DNA of 64,000 nucleotides, taken from positions 69,337 through 133,336 of IMG/VR virus record IMGVR_UViG_3300027971_000028; one strand, given 5' to 3'. The notes beneath the pieces are model-generated. The model was not told where the DNA came from. It did not search any database and saw only the letters and a list, made by a program, of their open reading frames with translations. The translations under genes and the position numbers were made by a program. This document shows positions 226 to 22,842 of the stretch, piece after piece (position 1 is the first letter of the stretch; each line of letters opens with the position of its first letter). This stretch comes from a virus.

Positions 226-906
226 ATGACTCGCTCAATTATCTTAGTTCCATCTAGAACTAGACCTAAAAGATTTGTTAAAGCAGTGGACTCTCTAAGA
301 TATCACTCAACTGTTTCGGACATAGTTGCTTGCTTAGATGAGGATGATCACGCTTTATATCCAAGGATGCAGGGTATTAAGTATGAGATAGGACCTAAAC
401 CAGAGCAGTTAGGTGTAAATGAAAAACTAAATCGCATGGCAAATAAGTATATGGACGAGTATGACTACATTCTTTGGGCAGCGGATGACACGACTGTTAT
501 GACACCTAAGTGGGATGAAAACCTTATTAATGCAATAAAAGATGTGCCTATGGGCATCTCATACCCAGATGATTTGGCTCAAAGGGCTCTTTTACCTAGC
601 AACGGAACTTGTTTTGATTCAAATATTGTAAAAACACTTGGATACCTAGCCCCTCCTGAGTTATTACATTTATATATAGATAATTTTTGGAAACTACTAG
701 GAGATGCTATGCAGACTCTTAGATACTGCCCTGAAGTTATCTTAGAACATCACCACTACGCAGTTCGCAAGGCACCTTCTGATGATTTATATGCTGCGAT
801 AAACTCTCCTTGGATGTATGAGCGAGATAGGAATGCTTTGGCTAAATATAAGATGACAAATTTTCAGAGTGATATTACAAAACTAAAAGAGGCAATTAAC
901 AAATGA
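226..906 (+). CDS. GT-A fold (GT2-like) glycosyltransferase
   Basis: N-terminal VPSRTRP, DEDD, WAADD DxD-like motif, YIDN, EHHHY. Confidence 0.75.
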   Translation: MTRSIILVPSRTRPKRFVKAVDSLRYHSTVSDIVACLDEDDHALYPRMQGIKYEIGPKPEQLGVNEKLNRMANKYMDEYDYILWAADDTTVMTPKWDENLINAIKDVPMGISYPDDLAQRALLPSNGTCFDSNIVKTLGYLAPPELLHLYIDNFWKLLGDAMQTLRYCPEVILEHHHYAVRKAPSDDLYAAINSPWMYERDRNALAKYKMTNFQSDITKLKEAINK

Positions 907-1907
907 AAGTATTAGTAACTGGTGTAGCAGGGTTTATGGGCAGTCATTTAGCAGATGCTTTTCTTGCTAAAGGCTACGATGTTGTGGGAATAGATAATTT
1001 ACTAGGTGGATATGAAGAAAATGTACCTTCAGGTGTTGATTTTCATAATATAGATTTAGATAATTTAGAACTAATCCAACCTCTTTTCAAAGATGTAGAT
1101 TTAGTAGTTCATACTGCTTGTACTGCCTATGAAGGGCTATCCGTATTCTCTCCGTCTCTAGTTGTTAGAAATACCATGCAAATAACAACAAACATAATGA
1201 GTGCTTGCGTAAAGGCTAATGTTAAAAAAATTGTTCATCTATCTTCTATGGCAAGGTATGGCACTCAGGATGTAGTTCCCTTTGTTGAGTCAATGACCCC
1301 TAAGCCTCAGGATCCGTATGGAATTGCAAAGTATGGGGCTGAACTTATGATTAAAAATATTGCAGACACTCACGGACTTAATTATGTAATACTTGTTCCA
1401 CACAACATTATTGGCCCTAGACAAAAATTTGATGACCCTTATAGAAACGTAGCCTCTATTATGATAAATAGAATGCTTCAAGGTAAGCAACCTATTATCT
1501 ATGGAAATGGCGAGCAAAAAAGATGTTTCTCATTTATGCAAGATGTCACTGATCCACTTATGATTGCATGTGAGACTGATGTTGCTGATGGTCGAATTGT
1601 TAATATTGGTCCAGATGAAGAGTTTGTTACCATAAATGAACTAGCTCAGAAACTATCAATAATTCTTGATTTTAAGTTAGATCCAATTTATATGCCAGGA
1701 AGACCTCAAGAAGTATTTCACGCTAACTGCTCAGCCAATCTAGCAAGAGAACTTTTAAACTACAAAACCACTACCTCATTAGAGTCTGGATTAGTAGAAC
1801 TAGTAAACTGGATTAAATCTAAGGGCGCTAGGCAGTTTAATTACCACCTGCCTCTAGAGTTTGTTACTGATAAAACTCCAAAAACTTGGACAGACAGGCT
1901 TATGTAA
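903..1907 (+). CDS. NAD-dependent nucleotide-sugar epimerase/dehydratase (extended SDR)
   Basis: TGVAGFMG Rossmann motif, SSMARYG, YGIAK (YxxxK), HNIIGPRQ, YGNGEQKRCF. Confidence 0.92.
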   Translation: MKVLVTGVAGFMGSHLADAFLAKGYDVVGIDNLLGGYEENVPSGVDFHNIDLDNLELIQPLFKDVDLVVHTACTAYEGLSVFSPSLVVRNTMQITTNIMSACVKANVKKIVHLSSMARYGTQDVVPFVESMTPKPQDPYGIAKYGAELMIKNIADTHGLNYVILVPHNIIGPRQKFDDPYRNVASIMINRMLQGKQPIIYGNGEQKRCFSFMQDVTDPLMIACETDVADGRIVNIGPDEEFVTINELAQKLSIILDFKLDPIYMPGRPQEVFHANCSANLARELLNYKTTTSLESGLVELVNWIKSKGARQFNYHLPLEFVTDKTPKTWTDRLM

Positions 1908-2769
1908 AACTAGTAATAGATTTATATTTTTCTGTTCTATTTTCTTTATTTTTTAAGTAATTAAACCACCACCTAGAGGCCCCAAGATTCTCACTCAAGG
2001 TAAGGACTCCATATATAGTTCTGTTGTCTATGTATTGAGTAATCCCTTTATCTCTAGCCGAGTTAGAAAAAACCATATACTCCCAGCGGTCTGACTGCTC
2101 TAGATAATTAAGTTCAGATAGGTACTCTCTTTTAATCAGATAAGTGCAGTGAACACACATGCATTCAATTAACCCTCTTACCTCTTGATTTAAAATTTTG
2201 TAGTAAATATCTTCTGCAATAATTGACCCAAAGTCATCTACTTTGTCGTGGTAGTTTGAGTAGTACCTGCTCATATGACCTTCTCGCTTAGCAGCCTCTA
2301 TAGGAGTATCAGCGTTTTCTCCAAGCGCAACCGCATACCTTAAGAAGGGAGCAACTATAGGTAAGTCTAGTTTTACTAACTCTTTAAGAGTTTCTGGGAA
2401 CAAGAAGTTGTCGGTATCTACTACAAAATAATACTCGCAATCTGTGAGTAAGGCTTGATTCATACTTTCTTGACGAATTTTTCCTAGAACCCTAAATCTT
2501 TCCCCATTCCAGAAATGAACATCATACTGCTCTACCTTCTCTGGAACATCTTCGCTGTTATAGATTAATCCTTTATATTTATCACCGTACTCTTCTACCC
2601 ACTCTTCTAAAAGTTGTTTTGTGTTATCTGTGTTGTTATTAGTTCTTATGTAGATAAATATGTTTTCTTTAGGATAGTCCCAATCATTTAAACTTTCTAA
2701 AAAAAGTGGAAGAACTGCTTCTTTTTGTTTTACAAGAAGGGCTAAGAATACGTTTGGCTGTGTCATCAA
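1900..2769 (-). CDS. Glycosyltransferase resembling the procollagen galactosyltransferase (COLGALT/PLOD) GT-A domain
   Basis: DYPKENIFIYIRTNNNTDNT, EEWVE, IRQESM, YYFVVDTDNFL, IVAPFL, YSNY, VHCTYLI match, in order, my recollection of COLGALT1 N-domain motifs. Confidence 0.75.
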   Translation of the reverse strand: MMTQPNVFLALLVKQKEAVLPLFLESLNDWDYPKENIFIYIRTNNNTDNTKQLLEEWVEEYGDKYKGLIYNSEDVPEKVEQYDVHFWNGERFRVLGKIRQESMNQALLTDCEYYFVVDTDNFLFPETLKELVKLDLPIVAPFLRYAVALGENADTPIEAAKREGHMSRYYSNYHDKVDDFGSIIAEDIYYKILNQEVRGLIECMCVHCTYLIKREYLSELNYLEQSDRWEYMVFSNSARDKGITQYIDNRTIYGVLTLSENLGASRWWFNYLKNKENRTEKYKSITSFT

Positions 2770-20578: not shown

Positions 20579-20592
20579 TTTTTAGCCCCTCC

Positions 20593-22842
20593 TTAGTTAA
20601 AATTAAATCTAATAAGTCTATTAGCAGCAGGCATTCCTAAAGATATTTGATTATAAGTTACTCCACCAATAATTGAATATATACTAGAGTTAGGCGTAAC
20701 CATTGCGTAAGTGTCTTCACGCCAAGCAAATATCTGCGGTGGATATCTATCATTATCACTAGAGTTTAAACCAACTGCTGCATAATTAAATATAAGTGGA
20801 GAAGCAACGCTAGAAGGAAGCCTCATAGAGCCTCCTAGAAGAGTAACGGTGTTTGTTCCAGAAGGAGCGTATAAAGTAACTGTTGATGTAACTCTAGCCA
20901 TGTTAAATCCTCTTGAATAACTTCCAGAAGACCCATTGCTACTACCTGTATTACCTACAGTCACAGTAAATGTATTAGAGTCTGAAACTGTTACTGTTAA
21001 AGATTGAGCGCCTGAAATATTTGTATTTCTAATAATTACTCTATCTCCAGTTGTTAGCCCATGGGAAGTAGATGTAACTGTTAATGTTGTAGTAGAACGA
21101 CTCCATGTAAGCGCTGATTTTTGGTCAACATCGTATGAATGTAGATAAAATTCTTCACCAGAAGTGCTTTGTACTTGATATCTTTCAATATAAACAGATG
21201 ACCCAGCGCCTGCTGGTCCCGTAGGTCCTGTAGCACCTGTTACACCAGCACCAGTTACTCCAGTTACACCTGTATTACCAGTAACACTCGCACCAGTTGC
21301 GCCAACTGCACCCGTTACACCTGTATTACCTTGCGCACCCGTAGGTCCTGCAACAGTTGAGTCAGCACCAGTCACACCCGTATTACCAGTAATACTTGCA
21401 CCAGTTGCTCCAGTAGCACCAGTTACACCAGTATTACCAACCGCACCCGTTTGTCCTGTAGCACCAGTTTGTCCAGTAACACTTGCACCAGTTGCACCAG
21501 TTGCACCTGTATTACCAGCAACAGTTGAGTTAGCACCAGTAGGTCCAGTATTTCCAGTAACACTTGCACCAGTTGCTCCCGTTACACCTGTTAATCCAGT
21601 TGCTCCTGTATTACCAACTGCTCCAGTTTGTCCCGTTGCTCCAGTATTTCCAGTAACACTTACACCTGTTTGACCAGTTACACCAGTATTACCTTGCGCA
21701 CCAGTATTTCCTTGTGCACCAGTTTGCCCAGTAACACTCGCACCAGTAGCACCTGTTCCACCAACCGCACCCGTAGGTCCTGCAACAGTTGAGTCAGCAC
21801 CAGTTGCACCAGTTGCACCAGTTGCACCATTTAATCCTGTTACACCAGTATTTCCAGTTACACCAGTATTACCAGTTACACCTGTATTACCAGTAACACT
21901 TGCACCAGTTGCTCCAGTTGCTCCCGTTGCGCCAGCACCAGTAGCACCAGTTGCACCAGTGTTACCTGTACCAGTTGGTCCAGTTGAACCTGTACTTCCT
22001 GTATTACCAGTTGCACCAGTTTGACCTGCACCAGTAGCACCTGTTACACCTGTTAATCCTGTAGGTCCAGTCGCACCAGTTTGACCTGAACCAGTTGCAC
22101 CAGTTGCTCCCGTTGCACCAGAAGGACCAACAATTTGTCCTACACTGCTCCAACTAGATCCGCCCCAAACATATAAGTCACCATCAGCATTAACAATGTA
22201 TGCATCATTAACTGCGTTACCACTTGATGGTAAATTACCAGTTGCTGCAACACTTCCACGAACATTTATAGATGTTCCAGCAGCACCAGTATTTCCAGTT
22301 ACACCAGTGTTTCCAGTAGGTCCAGTTCCACCTGTTGCACCTGTTGCACCAGTAGGTGCGCCAGCAGGACCCGTCGGTCCTGTTGCACCAGTTGGACCTG
22401 CACCAGTTGAACCAGTTCTTCCTGTTACACCTGTTGGACCTGTATTACCTTGTGGACCAACTGGTCCTCTAGATGAAGCAAATGCTCCTTGAGAATTTGA
22501 TACTGGGGCTACTCTGTCTAAGTTAGAGAAATTAACACTATTTACGCCAGTTAATAAATAAAATTTAAAACTATAAGCCCTAGCCCCTGAAATTCTTACT
22601 GTCGCTGTGTAATACCACCCAATTGGAGATAGATCTCTATCATCTGTACATGGAAGTGTGATTGAAAATGCACCAGAAGCATTTAAAGTTTCTGCCTGTG
22701 GGTCACTAATAATTACTGCATCATTAGCATCTAAAATTCTGCCAGAAGGTGTAAAAGTTACTATTCCAGCGGCAGCGCTTCCATTTGTATTCGTGAAGCT
22801 GCCCGTGATCGTTCTAGTGGATACATCCGCTGGATATGGCAT
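20593..22842 (-). CDS. Collagen-like fibre with an actinophage-type minor-tail N-domain
   Basis: [26 protein letters not shown]-domain; about 400 aa of GXT; HGLTTGDRV domain. Confidence 0.8.

Follow-up and report, generated by a model that had tools for sequence, protein, structure and literature searches.

In C. difficile the 358-residue enzyme SgtA, which joins a GT-A glycosyltransferase (GT) domain to TPR repeats and whose gene lies next to bclA3, adds β-O-GlcNAc to threonines in the GPT repeats of BclA3 collagen peptides in vitro (PMC7157674). According to PMC12357932 and PMC8968730, the BclA proteins of B. anthracis and B. cereus carry short O-glycans on threonines of collagen-like G-X-Thr repeats, and PMC11256854, citing Freeman et al. 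2023, reports that cluster F1 mycobacteriophages (Che8) encode the glycosylation of their own capsid proteins. In human COLGALT1 (GLT25D1) the N-terminal GT1 domain is non-catalytic, and BLAST was reported to find relatives of this domain only in animals and giant viruses (PMC12003778). Here we describe a 64,000-nucleotide stretch of viral DNA (the window), the final 64 kb (positions 69,337 to 133,336) of IMG/VR record IMGVR_UViG_3300027971_000028, a 133,336-bp genome of an uncultured freshwater actinophage that is rated 100% complete. Two adjacent genes in the window, for a GT2-TPR glycosyltransferase and for a 289-residue GT-A enzyme that we call GT289, close a cluster of fibre genes with collagen-like Gly-X-Thr repeats. 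As judged from gene content, this pair most likely sugar-coats the Gly-X-Thr fibres, because the same pair adjoins Gly-X-Thr collagen genes in many bacterial phyla.

The large terminase of the phage shares 76% identity with its counterpart in Actinomycetia phage DSL-LC01, a lake phage assembled from a metagenome (PMC10611076), and about 62% with those of 190-kb Microbacterium phages. Most of the head and tail genes form a module in the other half of the genome, outside the window. From 22842 down to 1900 the window holds 23 consecutive minus-strand genes that make up the fibre cluster, and the last two of these are the glycosyltransferase genes, which overlap by 4 bp. An initial annotation had reported three GT-A glycosyltransferases and a sugar epimerase at 226-3803 together with six collagen-like genes; every gene was found at the position it gave, the enzymes were confirmed by Pfam, PHROG and phmmer matches, and so were the six collagen-like genes. 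The pair and the collagen-like genes are as follows:

1900-2769, minus strand: GT289, a stand-alone GT-A enzyme of the COLGALT1-GT1 / LH3-AC / R699 domain family, 289 residues, placed by phmmer and a family profile (A1)
2766-3803, minus strand: GT2-TPR glycosyltransferase, 345 residues, soluble, with matches to PF00535, TPR and phrog_13126
7992-8525, minus strand: short collagen-like fibre protein, 177 residues, 8 triplets, all G-X-Thr
12476-13837, minus strand: collagen-like tail-fibre protein, 453 residues, 41 triplets, PF01391 E 6e-18, Thr in Y 34/41
13956-16094, minus strand: collagen-like fibre protein, 712 residues, 97 triplets, PF01391 E 2.5e-40, Thr in Y 64/97
17117-20578, minus strand: collagen-like fibre protein, 1153 residues, 119 triplets in 11 runs, PF01391 E 7e-40, Thr in Y 96/119
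20593-22842, minus strand: collagen-like fibre protein, 749 residues, 91 triplets, PF01391 E 8e-26, Thr in Y 69/91
46807-47709, minus strand: sixth collagen-like fibre protein, outside the main cluster, 300 residues, 35 triplets, PF01391 E 5e-14, Thr in Y 27/35

Counting G-X-Y triplets in runs of at least four gave 391 triplets over the six open reading frames (ORFs), with the longest run at 43 triplets. The five long ORFs score above the Pfam Collagen cut-off at E 5e-14 to 3e-40, so their matches are far beyond chance; the short ORF at 7992-8525 falls under the cut-off (E 0.0034), and the product of 12476-13837 also matches PHROG tail-fibre families down to E 1e-41. Thr fills 298 of the 391 Y positions and the remainder are Ser, Val, Asn, Gln and Ala. 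The earlier description of Thr in Y as almost invariable was therefore too strong at 76%, but Thr is clearly dominant, and its share lies well above the average of 31.6% for bacterial collagens generally (PMC8968730). Pro stands in Y only once, and Lys occurs in neither X nor Y.

The GT2-TPR enzyme matches phrog_13126 with E 2e-71 and TPR_2 with E 1.8e-7, while its match to PF00535 is weak (E 2e-4). Its AlphaFold2 (AF2) model (pLDDT 91) consists of a GT-A domain plus a helical repeat domain; residues 1-160 form the β/α core and ten helices over residues 165-344 match consensus TPR structures. The residues D83-L-D85, which form a DxD motif, are invariant across A2, the alignment and profile of the phage GT2-TPR family. 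Foldseek matched the model to GT2 enzymes, and the six best PDB matches were to ThuS and SunS (PDB 7msn, 7msk; E 4e-16 to 3e-12), with both domains aligned. Matches to wall-teichoic-acid and polysaccharide enzymes, at about 1e-6, were some ten orders of magnitude weaker. ThuS and SunS are GT2 enzymes in which a helical repeat domain binds the peptide substrate; they S-glycosylate Cys in small antimicrobial peptides (glycocins), and their sequence identity to the phage enzyme is only 13-15%. Together with the parallel to SgtA, the predicted fold places the GT2-TPR enzyme with GT2 enzymes whose helical repeat domain holds a peptide or protein acceptor, and we propose that it is an initiating protein O-glycosyltransferase.

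Like SgtA, the phage GT2-TPR enzyme is soluble, of about 350 residues, with an N-terminal GT-A (GT2) domain, a C-terminal TPR domain and a neighbouring gene for a Thr-in-Y collagen. A2 matches SgtA-sized GT2-TPR proteins of 358-359 residues encoded beside (GAT)n collagens in Paenibacillus and Bacillus over their full length (positions 3-354 and 4-336; E 5e-16 and 2e-14), but in pairwise alignment the phage enzyme and the Firmicute proteins share identity over the first ~86 residues only. The two systems also differ in their setting. The SgtA system belongs to the spore exosporium, whereas the one described here is phage-encoded with virion fibres as its proposed target; the phage repeats are mainly other than the GPT of BclA3, and, unlike SgtA, the phage enzyme is coupled to a second, COLGALT-GT1-like transferase. 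The BclA proteins of B. anthracis and B. cereus, compared here by description only, share G-X-Thr repeats with the phage proteins, the former being Firmicute spore surface proteins and the latter phage fibres. Che8, also likened by description only, resembles our phage as an actinobacteriophage with glycosyltransferases of its own that modify virion proteins; its targets are capsid proteins, whereas collagen-like fibres are proposed here.

GT289 carries a DTD motif at residues 118-120 and, used alone in phmmer, matched the N-terminal GT1 domain of COLGALT1 (E 1e-15, residues 4-147) and the accessory domain of LH3 (PLOD3; E 8e-7). The profile A1, built from 17 stand-alone members of the GT289 family, covered the whole COLGALT1 GT1 domain (E 1e-42, profile positions 2-241 of 257) and also matched the LH3 accessory domain (E 1.5e-20) and mimivirus R699 (E 3e-11); structures used for comparison were PDB 9evj, 8zgc, 6fxk and 9dyt. 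GT289 therefore shares with these three domains full-length homology, a retained DxD motif and a genetic tie to collagen-like substrates. An exhaustive search placed 830 clusters at 50% identity in the GT289 family, 291 of them at E <= 1e-30, and no Pfam or NCBIfam model covers the family properly. Many members are domains of multi-transferase proteins in which a GT25 domain often follows, the architecture of COLGALT1. GT289 has no GT25 domain; the protein stops after the GT1-like domain, and from its sequence we propose that it is either a second transferase or an accessory subunit. The animal COLGALT acceptor is hydroxylysine, whereas the collagen runs of the phage are free of Lys. A search of the complete 133-kb genome for a lysyl hydroxylase partner found no 2OG-Fe(II) oxygenase (2OG, 2-oxoglutarate). 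With neither Lys in the triplets nor such an oxygenase, hydroxylysine-linked glycosylation of the kind found in animals was excluded.

To place the pair among related phages, we scanned IMG/VR with the GT2-TPR protein and obtained 34 loci whose proteins are 70-97% identical to it. Each of these loci has the GT289 gene immediately after the GT2-TPR gene on the fibre-gene strand, and the pair sits at the border between conserved replication genes and a highly variable fibre cluster. In the large contig G004 no collagen gene was seen because the fibre side lies beyond the contig end, the pair beginning 1.6 kb from it. The initial annotation had proposed checking whether the enzymes and the collagen-like fibres co-occur across relatives, and they do so in the comparison made here. 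Neither enzyme is encoded by four cultured phages related through the large terminase (TerL), namely Cece and Pumpernickel of Microbacterium, GodonK of Gordonia and Mimi of Arthrobacter, and all four are essentially collagen-free: three gave no match to collagen and the fourth a single marginal one, with the caveat that related genomes are non-independent samples. Phage DSL-LC01 lacks GT289 but encodes a GT2-TPR homologue (35% identity) where its own collagen cluster ends. A tblastn search of GenBank phages with GT289 found no relative among them and one weak archaeal-virus match, so that cultured phages, DSL-LC01 included, are uninformative for this enzyme; in homologue searches with GT289 the best 120 matches were near-identical metagenome copies. 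We also noted that in DSL-LC01 a gene annotated as an FAD-dependent tryptophan halogenase (L002:18433-20004) lies between the collagen cluster and the GT2-TPR gene, a position taken by other genes in the window.

Twelve viral records encode a GT289 homologue. Collagen genes occur in 11 of them, among these every one of the six with a completeness of 90% or more, and the sole collagen-free record is a 14-kb fragment. Two other genome types unlike our phage in size, G018 (124 kb, with terminal repeats) and G021 (41 kb), encode GT289, a full-length GT2-TPR enzyme and collagens with 71-78% Thr in Y, and in G021 the GT2-TPR gene directly follows a collagen gene. The GT2-TPR gene thus adjoins a region of Thr-in-Y collagen-like genes in the window, in DSL-LC01, in G021 and in bacterial loci.

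The bacterial loci come from an A1 profile scan of one genome per prokaryote species, which left 79 loci at 42-51% identity in Alpha-, Beta- and Gammaproteobacteria, Acidobacteriota, Gemmatimonadota, Chlamydiota, Dependentiae, Bacillota and Actinomycetota. In 50/79 loci a collagen-like ORF of at least eight triplets lies within 10 kb, the median distance being about 1.5 kb, and in 40/79 such an ORF has Thr in at least 60% of its Y positions. The GT289 domain is fused to an SgtA-like GT2(-TPR) enzyme in one polypeptide in 53/79 loci, a GT2-TPR enzyme is present somewhere in the locus in 61/79, and all three parts (GT289, GT2-TPR and collagen) occur together in 43/79. Thr fills a median of 93% of the Y positions in the bacterial collagen ORFs (n=59). 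Of all bacterial triplets 48% are GAT, and GST, GDT, GQT, GPT and GNT come next; these are the triplet types of the phage. The match of A2 to the bacterial fusion proteins spans their first ~360 residues. This combination of fusion and collagen neighbourhood argues for a protein as the acceptor of the GT2-TPR/GT289 pair. The initial annotation had the glycosyltransferases act on Gly-X-Thr fibres as a group; for GT2-TPR and GT289 the adjacency in 34/34 phage loci and the bacterial neighbourhoods uphold that proposal, and for the epimerase and the third transferase, which accompany the pair only in the closest relatives and on the opposite strand, they do not.

Acquisition of the enzymes by the phage from its host phylum fits these data, because an Actinomycetes metagenome-assembled genome carries both phage-type enzymes as a 639-residue fusion (blastp E 2e-76 and 9e-69) with a collagen-like ORF adjacent to it. 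The neighbours of the bacterial loci are nucleotide-sugar genes, further transferases, methyltransferases and DUF4347 domains, not phage genes. A prophage origin was rejected for the three loci inspected, in which the neighbours are sugar-nucleotide genes and DUF4347 domains.

The Mesorhizobium enzyme of 933 residues (locus L042) is collinear with COLGALT1 residues 24-502 across both domains (E 2e-37), and in its N-terminal part it matches GmaR, which transfers O-GlcNAc to flagellin in Listeria (E 4.5e-9). Bacterial relatives of GT289 thus include proteins with the whole COLGALT1 architecture, GT1-like then GT25, whereas phage GT289 stands alone. In a 2173-residue Mesorhizobium protein Thr ends 576 of 579 triplets, and in a Bradyrhizobium protein 532 of 541; in these genomes of 8-9 Mb the Pfam Collagen matches listed all fall in the ORF beside the enzyme gene. 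As a separate observation, large fusion enzymes of 800-1900 residues that combine an SgtA/GmaR-like GT2-TPR part with GT1-like and GT25 domains (L042:8801-11602 and L043:448-11260 in Mesorhizobium, and L090, L040 and L046) have giant DUF4347-(G-X-Thr)350-580 proteins as neighbours, apparently the only collagen-like genes of their genomes.

Taken together, these data make it probable that the phage O-glycosylates its collagen-like fibre proteins in the host cytoplasm before or during assembly. In the mechanism we propose, fibre chains would be made in the cytoplasm and glycosylated there as they assemble or beforehand. The TPR domain of the GT2-TPR enzyme would hold the extended Gly-X-Thr chain for the GT-A domain, which would attach a first sugar to the Y-position Thr, paralleling SgtA, and the translationally coupled GT289 would then add the next sugar or, as its human homologue does structurally, serve as a nucleotide-sugar-binding partner subunit. 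The epimerase and the third transferase of this sub-lineage may provide a modified donor sugar and extend or diversify the glycan. The sugars might, as the initial annotation suggested, make the helix more stable, shield the fibre or help in host attachment. No membrane segment is predicted in any of the glyco-enzymes at 226-3803. A scan of 1-4800 found neither a minus-strand terminator that would separate the fibre genes from the GT2-TPR gene nor a convincing promoter, which leaves co-transcription neither proved nor excluded.

Several points weigh against this reading. No collagen ORF lies within 10 kb in 29 of the 79 bacterial loci, and the 34 phage loci are not independent, because gene order within one lineage is inherited. 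A complete virus, G019, has GT289 and a Gln-rich collagen with 14% Thr in Y and lacks GT2-TPR, and PaBG-like jumbo phages have distant GT2-TPR homologues and four collagen ORFs each, in which only 14-25% of Y positions are Thr. The likeness of GT289 to COLGALT is to a domain that has no catalytic role in humans, and the phage GT2-TPR enzyme is likened to SgtA by description and through the Bacillus and Paenibacillus proteins as proxies, not by the SgtA sequence. The phage being uncultured, the fibres are assigned to the virion only by homology to PHROG tail-fibre families, and all of the chemistry is inferred from homology, fold, gene order, gene fusion and co-occurrence.

The transferases might instead, or in addition, act on other virion proteins, such as the Ser/Thr- and Gly-rich PF21722 fibres or, as in mycobacteriophage Che8, capsid or tail-tube proteins, which we consider unlikely. 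The fibre cluster holds as many glycine-rich fibre-like genes as collagen genes, in the following arrangement:

4072-12465, minus strand: genes interleaved with the collagen genes, among them those for glycine-rich PF21722 and small phrog_7759 proteins
4733-6076, 6093-7397, 9043-10518, 11282-12118 and 16190-17116, minus strand: glycine-rich PF21722 proteins
4311-4679, 8687-9052 and 10938-11285, minus strand: small phrog_7759 proteins

Such targets would also accord with four relatives (L009-L012) in which the 10 kb upstream of the pair hold large BNR/DUF6242 proteins and further glycosyltransferases without collagen, with the capsid glycosylation of cluster F1 mycobacteriophages (as described in PMC11256854), and with the location of the jumbo-phage GT2-TPR homologues near a head maturation protease gene. 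However, the association in bacteria is specific to collagen-like ORFs, PF21722 and phage capsid genes being absent from those loci, and the contigs of L009-L012 carry collagen genes farther off, as named for L010 and L012. Glycosylation of the collagen-like fibres remains the reading we prefer.

The remaining sugar genes of the window are less closely tied to the fibres. They include a fourth GT-A-like gene that the initial count of glycosyltransferases had left out:

226-906, plus strand: GT226, a small GT-A glycosyltransferase of 226 residues, phrog_14945 E 7e-39
903-1907, plus strand: NAD-dependent nucleotide-sugar epimerase/dehydratase (extended SDR, short-chain dehydrogenase/reductase), 334 residues, PF01370 E 5e-52
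58648-59313, plus strand: fourth GT-A-like gene, phrog_1574, 221 residues

The epimerase and GT226 genes converge on the minus-strand pair and are present in only the 12 closest of the 34 loci (L003-L014); because of this distribution and the opposite strand, their link to the fibres is weak. The best NCBIfam matches of the epimerase (LegB-like and GalE) are far below cut-offs, so that its exact reaction is not assignable, and it is possible that it supplies a donor sugar for the fibres. The AF2 model of GT226 (pLDDT 94) shows a generic GT-A fold whose matches include TarP and RmlT.

These genes bear on a different explanation, in which the glyco-genes are auxiliary or host-takeover genes that alter envelope glycans such as teichoic acid or arabinogalactan, for example in superinfection exclusion, and owe their place beside the fibres to inheritance. 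The DSL-LC01 study takes the glyco-genes of that phage as auxiliary metabolic genes (PMC10611076). GT226 and the epimerase are variable and lie on the early-gene strand, the fold matches of GT226 to TarP and RmlT point the same way, and homologues of the two in Streptomyces phages lie among nucleotide-metabolism genes, those of GT226 beside another glycosyltransferase and a nucleotidyltransferase. If only GT226 and the epimerase are considered, such a role is plausible, though less likely than not. For the glyco-genes as a whole we regard it as improbable: the fusion and collagen neighbourhood of GT2-TPR and GT289 in bacteria speak for a protein acceptor, the fold of GT2-TPR is nearest to peptide glycosyltransferases, and there are no membrane segments, flippase or polyprenol-linked machinery.

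In phage T4, glucosylated hydroxymethylcytosine guards the DNA against restriction, and the transferases of the window could in principle glycosylate a hypermodified base of the phage DNA in a similar manner. GT226 matches part of the profile of phrog_2675, a family annotated as DNA methyltransferase (599 positions; E 2e-13), and a C5 cytosine methylase is encoded at 44602-45330. Yet the complete 133-kb genome contains no candidate for a ThyA- or ThyX-type (PF00303, PF02511) pyrimidine hydroxymethylase, no DNA glucosyltransferase appears among the top fold matches of GT2-TPR and GT226, and the bacterial neighbourhoods point to proteins. A role in DNA modification is thus very improbable, and with no hydroxymethylase in the complete genome DNA glycosylation was set aside.

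The genes that flank the pair differ between relatives. In L009-L012, three phrog_1574 GT-A genes, a GT4 gene and two methyltransferase genes instead surround the pair, and phrog_1574 paralogues lie directly upstream of the GT2-TPR gene in some relatives. Because variable glycosyltransferase and methyltransferase genes flank the pair in such loci, the data suggest that the glycan differs between phages that are otherwise 92% identical. In L010 (6315-9964) we observed the three phrog_1574 paralogues, the GT4 gene and one methyltransferase gene before the pair and the second methyltransferase gene after it.

O-glycosylation of collagen-like Thr by a GT2-TPR enzyme, in C. difficile spores, and phage-encoded glycosylation of virions, in mycobacteriophages, are already known. 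What is new is a phage fibre as the proposed target, the coupling to a stand-alone COLGALT-GT1-like enzyme, and the finding that Gly-X-Thr collagens across bacteria occur with this pair, which is usually fused and in many cases joined by GT25. Reviews hold that most bacterial collagens are not glycosylated. Our data suggest glycosylation of the giant (GAT/GST)n collagen-like proteins found in rhizobia, methylotrophs and others, and they give a concrete and testable function to the unnamed GT289 enzyme family with its 830 clusters. If the proposed mechanism is true, many uncultured freshwater phages carry sugar-coated collagen-like fibres, and the sugar coat could govern adsorption, host range, stability, grazing or immune recognition.

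We also consider, tentatively and with more doubt than confidence, that the GT2-TPR enzyme, the COLGALT-GT1-like enzyme (with GT25 in bacteria) and Gly-X-Thr collagen form an ancient, widespread bacterial and phage system that O-glycosylates collagen-like fibres and from which COLGALT and the LH3 accessory domain descend, with the acceptor changing from Thr to hydroxylysine. Were this so, glycosylated collagen would be older than animals and phages would be among its carriers. The COLGALT N-terminal domain is common in bacteria and phages and tied there to collagen-like genes, and the origin of animal collagen glycosylation is therefore testable.

Several further features of the window concern the fibre-like genes. 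At least ten paralogous PF21722 (Gly_rich_2) proteins with 20-38% Gly and a C-terminal motif like GGSGIVIIRYA are encoded in the areas 4733-7397, 9043-10518, 11282-12118, 16190-17116, 28643-31773 and 38109-42938. After several of these genes follows one for a phrog_7759 protein of about 115-122 residues (4311-4679, 8687-9052, 10938-11285 and 29617-29961), which might be a fibre assembly factor. The 16-nt element GAGAGCGCGAARAAAC lies inside a block of about 58 nt that ends in GGTATAATTA and has nine matches against 0.5 expected. Its sites (28581-28596, 30008-30023, 39909-39924, 41995-42010, 42986-43001, 47755-47770, 49871-49886 and 49455-49470) are just upstream of each MPILGT-type glycine-rich gene, of the sixth collagen gene and of two clusters of small paralogues, and the element looks like a shared promoter or leader. 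A scan of the window found it in neither the main collagen cluster nor the glycosyltransferase genes, and it is therefore no evidence of their co-regulation.

The terminase genes (31965-33853, minus strand) stand among fibre-like genes, about 60 kb from the portal, capsid and tail module. A serine recombinase gene at 36851-37501 on the minus strand (Resolvase N-terminal domain, E 1e-34) is flanked by glycine-rich genes of opposite orientation, whose common 5' ends and upstream blocks form inverted repeats (e.g. 30053-30164 with 41855-41966); the enzyme might act as an integrase or as an invertase for switching between fibre genes. The neighbouring 34090-36768 (minus strand) encodes an 892-residue protein without a Pfam match that has a hydrophobic, signal-like segment at its N-terminus, coiled stretches rich in Thr, Ala and Gln, and the four-residue repeat EIPT in about ten tandem copies. 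Finally, 47803-49405 and 49940-51536 (minus strand) each hold a tandem triplet of small paralogous genes for proteins of 165-200 residues, and the N-terminal motif of these proteins (…SSAASVTFSSIP.TYTD) is common to them and the large glycine-rich proteins encoded at 4733-7397.

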